A program made the translations under genes and the position numbers. Below are positions 28,337 to 35,625 of a stretch of 64,000 nt of DNA, in pieces; positions within the stretch are counted from its first letter, which is position 1, and each line of letters starts with the position of its first letter. Under the pieces are notes generated by a model. It searched no databases, was not told where the DNA came from, and saw nothing but the letters and a program-made list of their open reading frames with translations. This DNA comes from Coleofasciculus chthonoplastes F2-STO-03 (GTDB taxonomy: Bacteria; Cyanobacteriota; Cyanobacteriia; Cyanobacteriales; Coleofasciculaceae): NCBI GenBank assembly GCA_040222015.1, contig JAVJWO010000096.1, positions 1-64,000 of the forward strand. The letters run 5' to 3'.

Positions 28337-29158
28337 ATGGCTTGGTCGGCGGGACAGCAGTTGCAACGTGGCAAATATACGATTGAGAAGGAGTTAGGAT
28401 CAGGACGGTTTGGGATAACCTATTTAGCCCGCGATCGCACGTCCCAACGCTGTGTGGTGAAAACCCTGAGTGATACGTTACTCAATCAGCTTACTCCAGC
28501 AGAACTTAATCGACTTCAGGATAAGTTGTGGCAAGAGGCGGTGAAGTTGGCGCAGTGCAAACACCCTCATATTGTCCGGGTTAAAGATTCGTTTAAAGAA
28601 GGTGATCAAGTTTGTCTTGTCATGGAGTATATTCAGGGGCAAGATTTAACCCATGCCAACCGACTGACCGAAAAAGAAGCATTACACTATATTCGCCAGA
28701 TTGGTTCAGCACTGATGGTGGTGCATGAGAATAACTTAGTGCATCGGGATGTTCGACCTGCGAATATTATCATGCGTCAGGGGAAACGGGAGGCGGTGTT
28801 AATTGATTTTGGGTTAGCGGTGGGATTTGATCACCCGTTGACGACAATTAATCCGACAACCGCCGATGGGTTTACACCCCTGGAATTATATCATGTGGAT
28901 GCCGAACGCGGCGCTTATACGGATGTGTATTCCTTAGCCGCGACATTGTATCAATTATTAACCGGAGAAAAACCGCCCAGTGTCCGCGATCGCAGTTTGG
29001 CAAGGGCTAAATTAAAGCCACCTCAAGACGTGAATCCCCAAATGAGCGATCGCACAAATCAGGCGATTCTCCGAGGGATGGCGTTAGCCCCCGAAGAACG
29101 CCCGCTGAAATATTGCGTGCTTTCCCTGACATGGGAGAAGGAGAACCGAAATAATTAA
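28337..29158 (+). pseudogene. Ser/Thr protein kinase, C-terminally truncated
   Basis: GSGRFG, VVKTL, HRDVRPAN, DFG, TPLE, DVYSL. After EERP the frame runs into intergenic repeat sequence. Confidence 0.75.
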
Positions 29159-29352
29159 TGATAAAAAATGTAGCTGGCTATATCTTATCTTGCTCCCCTC
29201 TCCCCGGCGTGGGAAAGTCAACAGGCAATAGGCAACAGGCAACAATTTTAGAGTGGGCTGTTCAACCACAAATGAGGTAAAATCGGATGGGGAGTATCTG
29301 ACTGAATAATTTCCCAGAAAATAATTCCCCGTAATGGTAAAAGCAACTGGCT

Positions 29353-29700
29353 ATGCAAATTCGAGACTACTTCAACTTTCTGGCTCCTGATGATATCCGC
29401 ATTCAGGACAGTCGCATCGGAATTGAAAGCGTTCTTTACGAGTATATTTACCGAGCTAAAACCCCTGAAGAAATCGCCCAACAATTTGAAAGCATTACCC
29501 TAGAACAGGTTTATGCGACGATTCTTTACTATCTACACAACACCGAAGAAGTGAGTGCTTACTTGGCAGATTGGTTAGCATTTTGCCGTCAACAGCGAGA
29601 CGAGCAAAAACAGAATCCTTCTCCGGCACGACAGAGATTACGCCAATTGAAAGTAGAGGCAGAAGTTCAGCAAAAATATTCTGAATCGGTGAACAGTTGA
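29353..29700 (+). CDS. DUF433 family antitoxin
   Basis: IRIQDSRIGIE..TPEEIAQQF..TLEQVYATILYY. Confidence 0.85.
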   Translation: MQIRDYFNFLAPDDIRIQDSRIGIESVLYEYIYRAKTPEEIAQQFESITLEQVYATILYYLHNTEEVSAYLADWLAFCRQQRDEQKQNPSPARQRLRQLKVEAEVQQKYSESVNS

Positions 29701-30065
29701 TAATGATTCAATATTTGTTGGATGAGCATATTGCCTCGTTGTACCGAACTCAACTGATGCGTAAAGCTCCTTATCTTATTGTTAGAAAAATTGGAGATCC
29801 AGATGCTCCGGCAAAAGGAACTCTCGATCCTGAAATTTTAATCTGGTGTGAGACGAATAATTTTATATTAGTGACCAATAATCGGAAATCTATGCCCAAA
29901 CACTTAGCATATCATCTTGCCGAAGGACATCATATACCAGGAATCTTTGTTATCGATCTATCTCGGAATATTGGTGAAACCCTTACCGAGCTAATTTTCA
30001 TTGCTGAAGCTTCCTTTGTTGGGGAATATCAAGACCGAATTGAATACTTGCCGTTGAGTGAATAA
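29697..30065 (+). CDS. DUF5615 PIN-like toxin
   Basis: YLLDEHI, GTLDPEIL, ILVTNN, HIPGI. Overlaps the DUF433 gene. Confidence 0.85.
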   Translation: MIMIQYLLDEHIASLYRTQLMRKAPYLIVRKIGDPDAPAKGTLDPEILIWCETNNFILVTNNRKSMPKHLAYHLAEGHHIPGIFVIDLSRNIGETLTELIFIAEASFVGEYQDRIEYLPLSE

Positions 30066-30106
30066 GAAGAGCAGGAACGAACGATTTAAGATTTCATAGC
30101 CCTTAA

Positions 30107-30212
30107 TATAGCAGTTCCCAAGTGAGTGAGGTACACCCAAAGGTGGGAGCGAATGTAGGGGCACCATCCTTGCGCCCTCACCCCTGCACCTCATCTTATG
30201 AGAAACGCTATA
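30107..30212. mobile_element. MITE-like element with internal REP hairpin
   Basis: TATAGCAGTT...GAGGTACA / TGCACCTC...AAACGCTATA imperfect terminal inverted repeats. Internal GTAGGGGCAC..GCGCCCT. A similar end occurs at 13921. Confidence 0.55.
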
Positions 30213-30228
30213 GTCCTTAATTCCGGTT

Positions 30229-30290
30229 GTAGGGGCGGGTTTTACCGATAACGTTTCAGCATCAACCGATAACTGGACTAAACCCGCCCT
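30229..30290. repeat. GTAGGGGCGGGTTT...AAACCCGCCC REP-like element (others near 18295, 41231, 51181, 56781, 62893)
   Basis: Shared 9-14 bp inverted arms with variable 30-40 bp spacers. Confidence 0.85.
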
Positions 30291-30311
30291 CTTCTATCTT
30301 CAATCTCGTTT

Positions 30312-30851
30312 CATCCTGATTCCATCCACAGATTGTGACAAAATCAAGACAGATAAACATTAGGAAACTGTATCTCTATGGTGATAATTTTCACCCTCTT
30401 CCCCTAACCCCTTCTCCCATCGAGGGAGAAGGGGAACCGGAATAATTAATGATAAAAAATGTAGCTGGTTAGGTTTTCTCTTGCTCCCCTCTCCCCGGCG
30501 TGGGAGAGGGGCTGGGGGTGAGGGGGCGATAGCTAAACTATGACACCAATAATCAACAAACATCCTGATTTCATCTACCGATTGTGACAAAATCAATCCA
30601 GATAAACATTAGAAAACTGTATCTCCATGGTGATAAATTTCACCCTCTTCCCCTAACCCCTTCTCCCATCGAGGGCGAAGGGGAACCGGAATAATTAATG
30701 ATAAAAAATGTAGCTGGCTATATCTTCTCTTACTCCCCTCTCCCCGGCGTGGGAGAGGGGTTGGGGGTGAGGGGGCGATAACTTAACTACGACACCCCTA
30801 ATCAACAAACATCCTGATTCCATCCACAGATTGTGGCACAATCAAGACAGA
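30312..30851 (+). repeat. 249-bp tandem repeat (2 units plus a partial third)
   Basis: CATCCTGATT unit starts at 30312, 30561 and 30810. Each full unit holds CCCCTTCTCCC/GGGAGAAGGGG-type and CCCCTCTCCC/GGGAGAGGGG hairpins. A further partial copy lies at 29133-29214. Confidence 0.9.
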
Positions 30852-30870
30852 GTTATCGCAAAAATCATCA

Positions 30871-32184
30871 ATGGTCTGGGTCAAGGGACAAAAATTACAC
30901 GGTCGTCGCTACGTCATTGAACGAAAACTCGGTCAAGGTGGCTTTGGTATCACCTACCTGGCAAAAGACAGAAAAGGCAAACCCCTCGTTATCAAAACCC
31001 TGAAAGACGAGGTGATGACGAATCCCGACTTTATCGATTTTCGCGATAAATACCAGCGAGATTTTGAGAGGGAAGCCACCCGATTAGCCGTGTGTAAACA
31101 CCCCCATATTGTCCAGATTGAAAATGTTTTTCATGAACAATCCCTTCCCTGTATCGCCATGGAATATATCCAGGGGGAAGATTTATGGCGGCGGGTGAGA
31201 AATCGCAGTCCTTTATCGGAAGCTGAAGCATTAGGCTATATCCAGCAGATTGGGGAAGCGCTGACACTGGTTCATGATAAGGGCTTATTGCATCGGGATT
31301 TAAAACCGCAAAATATTATGGTGCGTTCTGATGTATCAGAAGCCGTACTCATTGATTTTGGCATTGCTAGAGAATTTATCCCTAATCTGACTCAAACTCA
31401 TAGTGTTCATGTCACACCGGGTTTTGCTCCCCTTGAGCAGTATGATGAGCAAGCACATCGAGGGGAATATACGGATGTGTATGGGTTAGCGGCGACATTG
31501 TATTGTTTATTGACGACAAAAGTACCACCACCAGCATTTATGCGAGTCGGGCGGGATAGGTTGCAATCACCACAGGCGCTGAATTCAAAAGTCAGTGATA
31601 GGGTGAATCAAGCCATTTTGACCGGGATGGAACTGCAACCGGAAAATCGTCCTCAATCGGTTTCGGAATGGTTGCGGTTATTGATTCCTGAGAATTTGGA
31701 TGAGGAGTTGAGTTCAGAATGTGGTATCGATTACCGCCGACTGCGAGATTTATTAGCTGCTGGAGAATGGAAAGAAGCGGATAGAGAAACGGCAGATAAA
31801 ATGCTGGCTGTGATTGGCAAAGAAAGCTGGTTGGATGTTGAAAGAGAAGATATAGACCAATTTCCTTGTACTGACCTACGAACGATTGACCGTCTCTGGG
31901 TAAAATATAGTAATGGAAGCTTTGGTTTTTCTGTGCAAAAGCGAATTTGGCAAAGTTTAGGGGGGCAACCAGGCGTGTATGATTATGACATTTATAAAAC
32001 GTTGGGTGATACCGTGGGTTGGCGTGAAAAAGATGATTGGTTAATGTATAAAGACCTTACCTTTAGTCTAAATGCCCCCCTTGGGCATCTGCCAAGTGTT
32101 GGAGGAGGGGGGAGGAGGAGAAGGGGGAGAGGGAGGGATGTGGTGATGTATCTCTTCTCTCGCGTCGAGACTTGTAAAATGTAA
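30871..32184 (+). CDS. Ser/Thr protein kinase with C-terminal GUN4-like domain
   Basis: Kinase GQGGFG, HRDLKPQN, DFG, APLE. GUN4-like DYRRLRDLLAAGEWKEADRET, FPCTDLRTIDRLW, FGFSVQKRIW, APLGHLP. Confidence 0.92.
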   Translation: MVWVKGQKLHGRRYVIERKLGQGGFGITYLAKDRKGKPLVIKTLKDEVMTNPDFIDFRDKYQRDFEREATRLAVCKHPHIVQIENVFHEQSLPCIAMEYIQGEDLWRRVRNRSPLSEAEALGYIQQIGEALTLVHDKGLLHRDLKPQNIMVRSDVSEAVLIDFGIAREFIPNLTQTHSVHVTPGFAPLEQYDEQAHRGEYTDVYGLAATLYCLLTTKVPPPAFMRVGRDRLQSPQALNSKVSDRVNQAILTGMELQPENRPQSVSEWLRLLIPENLDEELSSECGIDYRRLRDLLAAGEWKEADRETADKMLAVIGKESWLDVEREDIDQFPCTDLRTIDRLWVKYSNGSFGFSVQKRIWQSLGGQPGVYDYDIYKTLGDTVGWREKDDWLMYKDLTFSLNAPLGHLPSVGGGGRRRRGRGRDVVMYLFSRVETCKM

Positions 32185-32311
32185 CATATAAAGGTTTCAG
32201 CAGAATGTAACAATTTACAACAGAGGCAAAATCCACGAGGTCTTGCGGGTTCTACGTTTCCGATACCTGGCACCGCCCCAACCCAAAAGCAACAGTAATT
32301 CAATCAAATGT

Positions 32312-32728
32312 ATGGCTAGAGATGCCTTTCATAACGCAGTAAAAGTGGCACGACAAAAAGAAGGCTGGGTAATTACGGCTGATCCGCTACAGATTAAGTT
32401 TGGCAAGCTTGACTTGTATATTGATTTAGGTGCAGAACAGGTTATCGGCGCAGAGCAAAATGGACAGAAAATAGCCATTGAAATTAAGAGTTTTCTGGGA
32501 CAGTCTACGGTTACTGAATTTCACAGAGCGGTTGGACAATTTATTAGTTACCGAGATGTCCTCAGAGTGGTTGAGCCGGAGAGAGTTCTCTATCTCGCTG
32601 TACCACAACTTATCTATGATGATTTTTTTAAAGTGCAAGAGTTGGCTCAGTTAGTCGTACAAACGAATCAAATTAAAATCATTGTATATAACCCAGTTTT
32701 GGAGACAATTGTGCAATGGATAAACTAG
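32312..32728 (+). CDS. xisH: XisH family protein
   Basis: MARDAFHNAVK, GW.IT.DP, IDLGAE, IAIEIKSF, AVGQF..YR. Confidence 0.9.
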   Translation: MARDAFHNAVKVARQKEGWVITADPLQIKFGKLDLYIDLGAEQVIGAEQNGQKIAIEIKSFLGQSTVTEFHRAVGQFISYRDVLRVVEPERVLYLAVPQLIYDDFFKVQELAQLVVQTNQIKIIVYNPVLETIVQWIN

Positions 32729-33054
32729 AACGATATCGTCAAGCTGTCCAGCAAGTCTTAACCAAATATGGCAGCTATAAACCGATGAACGTACAGGTTG
32801 AAGTACAGATGATTTTTGACACTGAACGCGACTATTATCAAGTGGTGAGTGTGGGTTGGCACAACGAGAGACGAATCCACAGTTGCTCAATGCATATCGA
32901 TATTAAGCCGGATGGTAAGGTATGGATACAGCTTAATAATACTGAGGCTCATTTAGCCGATGAGTTGATGGAATTGGGCGTAAATCGGGAGGATATCGTA
33001 TTAGGATTTCATAGTCCTTATATGCGACAATTTACCGATTTTGCCGTTGGTTAA
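32716..33054 (+). CDS. xisI: XisI family protein
   Basis: MDKLERYR, FDTERDYYQ, HIDIK.GKVWIQ, DIVLGFHSP. Overlaps xisH. Confidence 0.9.
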   Translation: MDKLERYRQAVQQVLTKYGSYKPMNVQVEVQMIFDTERDYYQVVSVGWHNERRIHSCSMHIDIKPDGKVWIQLNNTEAHLADELMELGVNREDIVLGFHSPYMRQFTDFAVG

Positions 33055-33184
33055 TTGTGCAACCAAACTGCACGACAGCCAAAACCCACACCTGCGACTA
33101 CGCCAACATCACAACAGGTTCACCCAGAAACACATACCGCACCTGGCACCGCCCCAACTCCACAATAAAACACTCATAAAAATG

Positions 33185-33937: not shown

Positions 33938-34708
33938 CTAGGAACAAGGATGCGATCGCGCAAATTCTGCCATCAAGGGTTGATAGTGACGACTGGAGAA
34001 GGGACGATAATCCTTGCTCGCATCAACGCTCATTTTACACAATAACCGAAACTGTAAGGGTGTCGGCGCTTTATTGACACGTTCTACCTGTACCTCCAGG
34101 TTTAAGTTTTGTTGAAGTAAATCAAACATTTCTGCCAGCAAATATCGCGGACAATAACCGACAATGTAGTGGTCTTCTGTGGTTAAAATTAAAGCTTGAG
34201 CATCGTAAGGATTTTGAAATTCGTGAGCTAACCATAATTTGTTACCCGATTCAAACTGATTAATCCGCTCAATGGCACAGCTCGGCAAATGTCGCAGCCC
34301 ATGGGAGAAAAAGTATAAATGATACTGTCCTTGTGTATTAACTTCCGGACAAGGAAAAACAGCAAGTGTATCCGTTTCTCTTTCCCCACCACTGCGGGCT
34401 AAAATTGTCATGGGGTCATGTTCATCGTTGGGAATATTTAACCATTCCATAAAACTAGAATAATCTGGACGCGATCGCGACATTAACCGATTCGCAAAGA
34501 CGGGGAATAATTGAGTTGATGTATAAACTTCATCTAAGTACGGAAACGAAGATAATGGCTGAAAAGCACATTTGGCTTCCGCCTCTGTTACCCCTTGAGT
34601 ATAAACAAATTGATAGAGTCTTCCATCAAAGGTTAACCGACCAATCGGGAACCAATAGCGACTCATCGGATCTTGCCAAGCTAAAAATAGTGTTTTTGGT
34701 GTCTTCAA
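33938..34708 (-). CDS. HIRAN-domain protein, partner of the HipA-like kinase
   Basis: LFLAWQDP, LFPVFANR, C-terminal NPYDAQAL..VGYCPRYL. TTG start overlaps the kinase stop. Confidence 0.75.
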   Translation of the reverse strand: MKTPKTLFLAWQDPMSRYWFPIGRLTFDGRLYQFVYTQGVTEAEAKCAFQPLSSFPYLDEVYTSTQLFPVFANRLMSRSRPDYSSFMEWLNIPNDEHDPMTILARSGGERETDTLAVFPCPEVNTQGQYHLYFFSHGLRHLPSCAIERINQFESGNKLWLAHEFQNPYDAQALILTTEDHYIVGYCPRYLLAEMFDLLQQNLNLEVQVERVNKAPTPLQFRLLCKMSVDASKDYRPFSSRHYQPLMAEFARSHPCS

Positions 34709-35625
34709 GGTCGTGTTTTCCTCAAGGTAAGTAGCCGATGTTTATTGATATCCAGAATCTCCTGAGCAAAGTGGCTGGCTTCGGGAGAAATGCGCGATCG
34801 GTTAATGCGATTAAAGATGGCTAAAGTATTAGCCTTTTGGATCGTTTCCAGCCGCGCCAACCACACAGAAGCCGCTTGGGGATAGCGATGAGCCACGAGT
34901 GAGAACACATCAAAGGTTTTAAGCGTTTTTCTATCATCAACACTGCCATAAAACGCCGAAAAACATTTATTGGCATAAGCCTGAACTGAGCGTTTCTGCC
35001 TTTGCTCGTCAGAGAGATCGCGTCCTAAACTGGAAGCATGGTCATAGGTTGGTGCTAGGTGTTCAGTTTCAGCGGACGCTGATGCTATTTTCATGCGAAC
35101 AATTCCCCAATTTTCATGGTGACGATCGCCATTACCAATCCATGCATCTAGCAGCAGATAACCAACAAACACATCTACTGCTGTTTGGATACCAGAGGGC
35201 GGTGTCCAATCAATCGGTAAATGGACAGATTCCCCGGCAATCACCCTTAATACTCTATCTATTGTATGTTGTGATATACCATACGTCCCAAACGCCGGAT
35301 AGTTCGGCACAATTGAGGAAAGCAGTTCGTTACCATGAACCAGCGTCCCCGATTTCGGTAAAAAGTTAGGTGAAACGACACCGCGATCGCCTTTCCAGGT
35401 AGAAGCCAATTCGTAAACCGCATGGGGAAGTCCCAATAGTTGGCATAATTCTGAGGCGACTTTTTCTGCCCAATCTTCCCCCAGGTTGGGTCTGCTTTGT
35501 TTATAAAGACAACGACCCAGTTTTTCGTGGTAGAACCAAAACTTATATTTACTCCCTAACGCTTCATTCGAGGAGGCTTCATACGCTTCTTGCGTGACCA
35601 GTAAGATTGGGAATTCATCGGTCAT
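34705..35625 (-). CDS. HipA-like kinase
   Basis: LGSKYKFW, LYK, EDWAEKVA, DAWIGNGDRHHENWG, LAPTYDH. Confidence 0.88.
   Translation of the reverse strand: MTDEFPILLVTQEAYEASSNEALGSKYKFWFYHEKLGRCLYKQSRPNLGEDWAEKVASELCQLLGLPHAVYELASTWKGDRGVVSPNFLPKSGTLVHGNELLSSIVPNYPAFGTYGISQHTIDRVLRVIAGESVHLPIDWTPPSGIQTAVDVFVGYLLLDAWIGNGDRHHENWGIVRMKIASASAETEHLAPTYDHASSLGRDLSDEQRQKRSVQAYANKCFSAFYGSVDDRKTLKTFDVFSLVAHRYPQAASVWLARLETIQKANTLAIFNRINRSRISPEASHFAQEILDINKHRLLTLRKTRP

Follow-up and report, generated by a model that had tools for sequence, protein, structure and literature searches.

How does a protein-coding gene come to hold, close to its stop codon, a stretch of DNA from which one of the four bases is missing? 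The question is raised by a gene for a serine/threonine kinase with a C-terminal GUN4-like domain from the cyanobacterium Coleofasciculus chthonoplastes F2-STO-03, found within positions 1 to 64,000 of contig JAVJWO010000096.1 (assembly GCA_040222015.1); this whole stretch of 64,000 nt is called the window below. Comparison with homologous gene ends indicates that the segment belongs to a family of inserts that are replaced wholesale between sharp borders, that have no template found for them, and that are tightly linked to one clade of REP-associated tyrosine transposases (RAYTs). We lean towards the reading that the segment is the product of a module free of reverse transcriptase (RT), in which nicking by the RAYT would be followed by untemplated filling.

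The gene end and its conserved frame

The cassette occurs class-wide and runs in the order GUN4-like domain, GHLP anchor, G/T-biased insert and a fixed-length block of 122 bp (32152-32273 in the window). Its parts are the following:

30871..32184, + strand: target gene, Ser/Thr kinase with a C-terminal GUN4-like domain, 437 aa (open reading frame, Pfam and domain model)
32083..32093, + strand: 5' anchor, the codons for G-H-L and the first two bases of P
32094..32151, + strand: variable insert, 58 nt, C-free, 19 codons after the Pro (base counts); replaces Gun4 residues ~209-221
32152..32191, + strand: three-frame cap, 40 bp, reading LFSRVETCKM-stop, SSLASRLVKCNI-stop or LLSRRDL-stop, depending on insert length
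32192..32263, no strand assigned: non-coding spacer of fixed length with short conserved motifs (spacing counts)
32264..32273, no strand assigned: end motif TACCTGGCAC, candidate RAYT recognition or nick site and the point at which the RAYT gene of relatives ends, on the opposite strand

Both domains of the 437-aa gene are recognized by Pfam (PF00069, E 2e-39; PF05419, E 5e-42). As the initial annotation had read from the letters, the insert has no C (A15 C0 G34 T9) and is exclusively G/A from 32101 to 32138, and its 19 codons stand in frame between GHLP on one side and LFSRVETCKM-stop on the other. C makes up 18.8% of the remainder of the gene, and 58 C-free bases have a chance probability of about 6e-6 per place, or 0.007 per gene. 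Genome-wide, C-free runs of at least 45 nt number 377 and are therefore common, the G-richest being mostly short tandem repeats; in the 3,774 long open reading frames of the genome there are only 20 runs of at least 50 nt, of which the window's segment is the G-richest. Two other C-free, G-rich gene ends in this genome both lie in ordinary genes without the block. Within its own family the insert is also an extreme, since its purine run of 38 nt is followed by a next longest of 19 nt, and most inserts are rich in G and T. A protein from another assembly (P0005, on a separate contig of 5,980 nt) is 98% identical and differs at 8 of 437 residues, none of them within the segment; because the same 19 residues are present there, the segment is neither an assembly error nor the poly-G artefact that had been considered. 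The suggestion of a G-quadruplex fared worse: the segment fits the pattern only with loops of up to 12 nt, and as a family feature it was rejected, since the canonical pattern occurs in 22 of the 177 homologous inserts and shuffles predict 19.7.

Behind the segment it is the DNA, and not the protein alone, that is conserved among homologues. A 126-nt query starting at the junction finds matches in 160 of the 401 genomes of the order, and a 22-nt pattern finds at least 123 stretches across the genome collection. In 148 of 163 distinct cap matches a script could place a GHLP-like anchor; among the shown matches of the 15 left unplaced, several are GUN4 ends with an altered anchor or lie at a contig end. 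Variation starts directly after the CC of the anchor (these two bases are 100% C,C because the anchor search itself fixed them), the next base being already A.21 C.17 G.29 T.32.

Across the family, the three frames of the cap read LFSRVETCKx-stop, SSLASRLVxCNI-stop and LLSRRDL-stop, with the stop at codon 11 in 53, at codon 13 in 48 and at codon 8 in 54 of 55 non-redundant blocks, and all three are used in real genes (66, 55 and 56 of 177). Each frame thus supplies a C-terminal helix of similar kind along with its stop. Any insert length would be acceptable, since the cap can complete the protein in every frame. Two of the frames share S-R-hydrophobic-x-x-C-K/N-hydrophobic-stop, and the third is similar to LLSHPAW, with which the genome's true Gun4, encoded on contig C22, ends. 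Downstream, the motif-to-motif distance is 105 nt in 105 of 143 blocks and 106 nt in 21; the end motif was the search key of this comparison, where its conservation is by construction, and it was found independently at the ends of RAYT genes. It is also a frequent breakpoint, duplicated in locus L039 and fused to upstream sequence in L212 and L219. RNAalifold yields no structure for the spacer on either strand, and there is no Rfam match at gathering score; one Rfam family considered for the block was discarded as a chance-level match (24 bits against 50). The junction can form a perfect hairpin, but about a quarter of the 55 blocks disrupt it with no compensating change, and no consensus structure is predicted, so the hairpin may be a by-product of triple coding.

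In the domain model (mean pLDDT 89), which matches the Gun4-porphyrin structure 4XKC with Z 22.7 and rmsd 1.6 over 146 residues, pLDDT falls below 50 only at domain residues 138-146, within the insert; the last helix comes from the cap. When aligned with Synechocystis Gun4, GHLP falls at Pro208. In that protein Pro208 is structural, and Leu210, Arg214, Arg217 and Val218 contact the porphyrin (PMC1084334; this and other sources with a PMC number are cited for the passages concerned and not for their whole text). Since the contact residues follow GHLP, the insert takes the place of the ligand-contacting lid of Gun4, in agreement with the ligand-binding position proposed at the outset. Canonical Gun4 (PDB 1Y6I, 4XKB, 4XKC) has the same fold and a GHLP with the structural Pro208, but keeps the Leu210/Arg214/Arg217/Val218 stretch that the window's domain has swapped for the insert; with the Arg214-bearing stretch for porphyrin binding replaced, the domain does not qualify as a canonical Gun4. 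GUN4 is described as an effector-side domain of cyanobacterial conflict systems, with a tetrapyrrole sensor as the guessed role (PMC7159879, PMC8195603). The GUN4-like domains studied here would instead be variable-ligand sensors and, if the mechanism proposed below holds, so would many of those in cyanobacterial conflict proteins.

Replacement and probable freezing of the inserts

The variability of the inserts is most evident between loci that are otherwise nearly identical. In 25 of 26 pairs with at least 95% upstream identity (mostly from one genus, and not independent) the inserts are unalike, and the following 60 nt are about 98% alike. The complete genome G225 contains a duplicated unit of gene end, block and RAYT with unrelated inserts, the identity of the two copies being 124/124 and 496/500 downstream and 302/319 upstream. 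Six further loci, 97-99.5% identical over 1 kb with the RAYT included, have six different inserts. Alignment of the DNA between GHLP and the cap in relatives likewise gave constant flanks around variable, mostly G/T-rich interiors, and the hypervariable cassette with constant flanks that the initial annotation had postulated is thus borne out by comparison.

The 177 distinct inserts (184 before near-copies were merged) are composed of G.41 T.30 A.18 C.11, equally at the three codon positions, which indicates that the bias acts on the DNA; the upstream gene has G.27/C.18 against the G.41/C.11 of the inserts. Composition differs between inserts (chi2/df 3.4), and some are of ordinary composition. 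Their length ranges from 30 to 175 nt with a median of 61, and falls 66/55/56 by remainder modulo 3. In-frame stops occur 13 times, against 110 expected from shuffles and 89 and 103 in the other two frames, a depletion that shows selection of insert products for an open frame. In shuffles that ignore dinucleotide bias, the residues W, Y, F, H, E and D reach 1.25-1.5 times the expectation from composition and C 0.6 times.

Internal direct repeats are enriched in the inserts (10-mers, 89 against 9.6) and inverted ones are not. Same-strand copies of the 30 nt upstream, on the anchor side, are enriched as well (7-mers, 123 against 27), and 12 of 18 copies of upstream sequence end no more than 2 nt from the anchor end. 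Together, the direct repeats and anchor copies may be the trace of a 3' end slipping and re-annealing near a break. Fold-back copying of the anchor was rejected as weakly above controls (7-mers, 68 against 47 and 42), and so was a CRISPR-leader reading, there being no repeats and a single insert per block. Comparison of prefix and suffix sharing between inserts gave no clear polarity.

No second copy of the window insert was found elsewhere in its genome, where the longest match is 15 nt (13-18 in shuffles), and the same holds for inserts from G225 (complete), G029 and G008 in their own genomes. The search that had been advised for a non-coding copy of the flanks, enclosing an A-rich template near an RT, found the cap in one copy only in this draft genome. 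Unalignable inserts, G/T-biased bases and the lack of a template copy are what the initial annotation's poorly templated process would leave. Assembly gaps or contig ends fall inside the insert at L398 (G495:C188), L053, L199, L208 and L222, as expected from mixed populations or G-rich dropout.

Not all inserts vary to the same degree. Genus g94 has 11 copies whose cap is intact, with a common insert in 1 of their 55 pairs, and 10 whose cap has decayed, with a common insert in all 45. Among pairs orthologous on both flanks, none of the 17 next to whole RAYTs are alike, against 37 of the 43 that have lost the end motif; counted by ortholog cluster, 4 of 4 with whole RAYTs have all-different inserts. 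Stops, taken as a mark of unselected products, are found in 7 of the 39 inserts that have an intact RAYT next to them and in 4 of the other 88 (p 0.034, exploratory). Near-identical kinases of the window's genus have at least 5 insert alleles, several of them common to different strains. These patterns fit, without proving, a generation of inserts at RAYT-bearing loci, their spread by recombination and their eventual freezing.

The window copy seems to have reached the last of these states, as suggested by the lack of a RAYT of the clade in its genome together with the same insert in a close strain; it is probably an orphaned, frozen product that has lost its RAYT. Invariance across strains, which had been named in advance as grounds for giving up the idea of a variable cassette, thus holds for the close strain at the window locus and fails among relatives, where inserts vary. 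A contig of sequencing run X3 spans the window locus, xisHI included, with 136 other letters instead of 126. Four sequencing runs gave only contigs of relatives with small word shares and left the insert uncovered in all four, by itself not evidence.

In several GUN4 families (L009, L012-L014, L016, L018, L019; L017, L020; L021, L024) the cap has decayed and what was once the insert is conserved from genus to genus; judged by this conservation, such inserts are old ones fixed by selection. In proteins with two GUN4 domains (P0020, P0021, P0059, P0068, L322), the inner domain often keeps an older insert and the last domain has a new one. Inner-domain inserts of such proteins occur as terminal inserts elsewhere.

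The facing RAYT and its other targets

Clustering of the neighbours of 110 flanked loci revealed one recurrent unrelated gene, a 257-aa HUH tyrosine transposase in convergent orientation at 22 loci. This RAYT ends at or inside the block, and fragments of it are present at further loci; since it stops at differing places, the block is not RAYT coding sequence. The protein matches PF01797 (E 6e-19) and has invariant N59 H60 H62 and Y122 I H. N P in 27 sequences, corresponding to a HuH motif NHVH and a Y---NP catalytic motif, and the best Foldseek match of its model is E. coli TnpA-REP (4ER8). Its C-terminal part is conserved within the 257 aa, with no HTH Pfam match and low pLDDT. NF047646 scores 72.3 bits, under its cut-off of 80, and NF033573, used to test for IS200/IS605 membership, 24 bits against a cut-off of 55. 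A conserved peptide, PGQ-x-L-W, is similar to QLxLF, the consensus for clamp binding. In its motifs and length the protein fits subclass 2.1 (RAYT group 1), the TnpA-Y1 class 2 subclass with NHVH, Y---NP and a long protein whose added C-terminal domain is called HTH-like (PMC6006769). Flanking terminal inverted repeats with GGGGWSAS (TIRYTs; PMC3733652) are a further character associated with this subclass.

RAYT matches, whole or partial, are found in 140 of the 401 genomes of the order. The linkage was also examined from the side of the transposase in metagenomes, using the best 80 of 375 relatives, of which 14 had too little flank. At the remaining 66 loci a convergent GUN4 gene is present in 49, with the block in 35 and with a decayed block in 14, and one more locus has the block only. 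In other orders, 36 of 40 RAYT loci face a GUN4 gene; these 40 came from the upper part of the list of RAYT relatives and were chosen before their neighbours were viewed. Largest among the clusters of genes upstream of the RAYT is one of 4 in 50 loci, so no conserved gene stands there, and viral contigs hold neither a cap match nor a RAYT relative. The window's genome has three other RAYT-type genes (G000:C134:44158, C157:25365, C207:2283), which are of other kinds and have each their own REP-like repeats.

Facing pairs with a RAYT, a conserved distance and an intergenic block are thus found in relatives, and at the window locus the RAYT is missing. Its place is occupied by the following feature:

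32312..33054, + strand: xisH-xisI pair (Pfam)

The two copies of an 18-nt direct repeat whose start lies within the end motif (32265-32282, 33141-33158) enclose the pair, which L002 lacks at the corresponding position. Where a RAYT was lost, small toxin-antitoxin-like, Uma2 and xisHI genes are often found in its place, as if the end motif were an insertion hot spot.

The best comparison for this arrangement is offered by marine picocyanobacteria, where tnpA-REP faces procA (prochlorosin) at a conserved distance and the cores are indel-rich (bioRxiv 10.1101/2020.03.09.984088), a link that the preprint calls unique to picocyanobacteria. The RAYT profile finds matches in small f39 genomes with E of about 1e-85, and 19 regions around them were examined. 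Full-length picocyanobacterial RAYTs are about 46-51% identical to the GUN4-facing RAYT, and face either genes for Nif11 precursors or a 330-aa family whose tail varies after NRDVRVHD. All picocyanobacterial copies with a terminator-like hairpin (17 of 17) carry the end motif 76-80 nt away from it. Because this motif is the same, one RAYT clade appears to face three unrelated hypervariable targets; on this evidence the 330-aa family is the third RAYT target, and it is unmentioned in the main text of the prochlorosin preprint. Of the indirect evidence for causality, this sharing of one clade and one motif by three variable-tailed families that are unrelated to each other is the strongest, as chance linkage does not predict that two further, unrelated targets share both. 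In the 330-aa family (L350:1348-2352, L352, L354-L357) the tail often contains Cys, and Atlas clusters annotate it as 'carbamoyl-phosphate synthase'; a neighbouring Atlas cluster has IAT_beta on 43% of its members, which is a lead.

Similarities between the cassette and the tnpA-REP/procA pairs include a subclass 2.1 RAYT facing its target, a conserved intergenic block and distance, many C-terminal RAYT fragments, variation with indels focused on the C-terminal part, and a shared RAYT lineage and end motif. They differ in the target, in one case a GUN4-like sensor domain carried by kinases, caspases and other effectors, in the other a Nif11-leader lanthipeptide precursor. Moreover, the insert of the cassette lies inside a fold and is followed by a three-frame cap, whereas procA ends at a chance stop before a terminator-like hairpin, and it is the cassette that is strongly G/T-biased and has a block of 122 bp.

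Other relatives are more distant. REPtrons (E. coli TnpA-REP, GTAG-tagged REPs, PDB 4ER8) share the HUH-Y1 fold and CT-rich candidate cut sites, but the cassette has no multicopy REP family or supported hairpin, its block is single-copy in the window's genome, its RAYT is longer at the C-terminus, and its candidate substrate is a coding gene end. IS200/IS605 elements have two subterminal hairpin ends and near-identical copies at unrelated sites, in contrast to the cassette with its fixed neighbour and without a conserved 5' end. Cyanobacterial diversity-generating retroelements (DGRs; PMC7517822, PMC7159879) resemble the cassette in their short C-terminal variable region, constant flanks and multidomain proteins of kinase, caspase or TIR type; unlike them, the cassette has no RT partner, template or adenine-only rule, its length varies in all frames, and its fold is GUN4 (Pfam and structure) instead of C-type lectin or Ig-like. 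No paper linking GUN4 domains to a RAYT or a variable tail was found in a literature search that took in few subscription journals.

A proposed mechanism and competing explanations

In the mechanism that we favour, the RAYT would be positioned by the end motif at its fixed distance, perhaps brought to the replication fork by the clamp-binding-like peptide. It would nick single-stranded DNA at the CT-rich start of the cap and stay bound to the 5' end of the cap, while the freed 3' end would be trimmed back to the C-rich anchor. A housekeeping polymerase would then extend this 3' end by slipping and largely untemplated synthesis with a G/T bias, and the RAYT would rejoin the new 3' end to the cap. 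Selection would remove stops, useful alleles would spread via recombination between the constant flanks, and alleles would freeze once the RAYT or the block decays, the window copy being such an orphan. E. coli TnpA-REP, for comparison, cuts at CT, even far from its binding site (PMC3479197).

By analogy, the system would work like junctional diversity and belong with the proposed tnpA-REP facing-pair systems. The N-regions of V(D)J junctions are likewise made with a domesticated transposase, by untemplated, G-rich filling of variable length in the CDR3 binding loop, with selection for frame. The cassette differs in having no gene segments, no TdT-like polymerase found and HUH instead of DDE chemistry, so the likeness is one of analogy only. 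More tentatively, one could propose a domesticated HUH transposase clade as the engine of a general RT-free and template-free diversifier of cyanobacteria. The enzyme would cut at a set distance from the 10-bp motif, allow random new sequence to enter a binding loop and then close the strand again; GUN4 sensors of conflict kinases and caspases would be its main clients, and prochlorosin cores and a picocyanobacterial outer-membrane-type family later ones.

Several observations weigh against these proposals, beginning with the fact that their support is wholly comparative. Of the 37 alike pairs at loci without the end motif, 36 come from one cluster, and 3 of 6 ortholog clusters without an adjacent RAYT have all-different inserts. 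No member of the RAYT clade was found when the window's own genome was searched, and 16 of the 66 metagenome RAYT loci have neither block nor GUN4 gene nearby, some of them holding a decayed block. The junction hairpin, without compensatory change in 55 blocks, gives no support for a REP-like structure. The variable regions of picocyanobacteria (11 regions) have no G/T bias, and the authors of the preprint note no strong evidence for or against causality (bioRxiv 10.1101/2020.03.09.984088). In addition, searches with one query or profile each found no dedicated polymerase in 30 RAYT-positive genomes (Y-family 1/30, AEP 0/30, PolX 0/30); an Abi-like RT (query from contig C151) is present in 2 of 30 genomes with a whole RAYT, and some RT is present in 5 of 5 complete genomes tested. 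As dedicated polymerases are mostly missing, what is left for the filling step is housekeeping polymerases, an RT in trans or the ligation of small pieces. In the full set of 40 cyanobacterial genomes examined, a Y-family polymerase was seen in 1, and AEP and PolX in none.

The alternative that survives best, although we consider it unlikely, is a slippage locus without a dedicated enzyme, where a G/T-rich loop would mutate fast by replication slippage and be swapped by recombination of its flanks, the cap having evolved as frameshift tolerance and the RAYT being a passenger. The enriched direct repeats and long runs, the uneven composition of the inserts, the three RAYT-less clusters that differ and the recurrence of an allele in several strains and as an inner domain all agree with it. 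Slippage, however, gives alignable alleles, and what is observed is whole replacement between sharp borders at 99% flank identity; an insert with a G-run behind a decayed cap is stable in all 45 pairs, and the fixed 105-nt spacing, the same end motif and the facing RAYT at unrelated targets are left unexplained.

We give less credence to capture driven by the RAYT, which would cut at the cap and ligate short foreign single-stranded pieces, such as fork debris or degraded phage DNA, into a mosaic insert. Strand transfer of this kind is known chemistry, the authors on TnpA-REP suggesting that any 3'-OH can resolve the phosphotyrosine (PMC3479197), and capture would make a special polymerase unnecessary and accommodate the inserts of ordinary composition. 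It is opposed by the lack of a source for the window insert and three others in their own genomes, a negative that is blind to pieces under about 15 nt or from unsampled phages, and by a G/C skew far from that of the upstream gene.

Quite improbable is a selfish element, in which RAYT and block would be mobile, insert at the GHLP codons and restore the gene end in any frame, leaving one random footprint per insertion. The element is found on 4 plasmids at a coverage of at least 80%, genomes hold several copies and many fragments, and group 1 RAYTs are the more IS-like among true RAYTs (PMC5581495). Against this, inspection of 45 loci by eye, with no formal search for terminal inverted repeats, showed no conserved second end upstream of where the RAYT starts; RAYTs group by host family in several well-supported branches (in a tree without the picocyanobacterial RAYTs), and the six nearly identical loci, alike even in their RAYT, each have their own insert.

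An unusual DGR, or another RT that uses a distant A-rich template, as the initial annotation had in mind, deserves hardly any credence: adenine mutagenesis of such a template could give G > T > A > C, RTs occur in all five complete genomes tested and cyanobacterial DGRs act on similar multidomain proteins (PMC7517822), but the cap is single-copy in the window's genome, none of the 163 cap matches was seen as a template beside an RT, neighbours include no RT cluster, and lengths vary in all frames, which largely refutes the reading. On these grounds the segment is very probably not a DGR target. Inspection of the four RT loci in the 219-contig draft found no DGR anatomy, with no DGR-specific profile run; by inspection they look like two group II intron RTs, an RT-Cas1 and an Abi/UG-like RT. 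The last of these (G000:C151:7509-8678, L037) stands beside helicase-exonuclease and HTH-peptidase genes and is unrelated to the cassette.

If RAYT nicking followed by untemplated filling is indeed the origin of these inserts, the module would be a bacterial counterpart of antibody junctional diversity, in which a triple-coded gene end makes every length productive. It would represent a route of diversification unlike DGRs, integrons, shufflons and CRISPR adaptation, yielding de novo sequence of free length, and would give group 1 RAYTs a function and prochlorosin core diversification its missing test. Because the module is small (one 257-aa gene and 122 bp in cis) and occurs in filamentous and bloom-forming cyanobacteria that can be cultured, it is directly testable, and it might serve for building libraries in vivo.

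Besides the cassette, the surroundings of the target gene include a second, apparently truncated kinase gene (273 aa) and a DUF433 pair upstream, at 28337-30871 of the window. An intergenic block of palindromic repeats, about 250 nt long, is present in two near-copies at ~30310-30580 and ~30570-30840, and a HIRAN-domain gene and a HipA-like kinase gene stand in tandem at 33938-35625 on the - strand.

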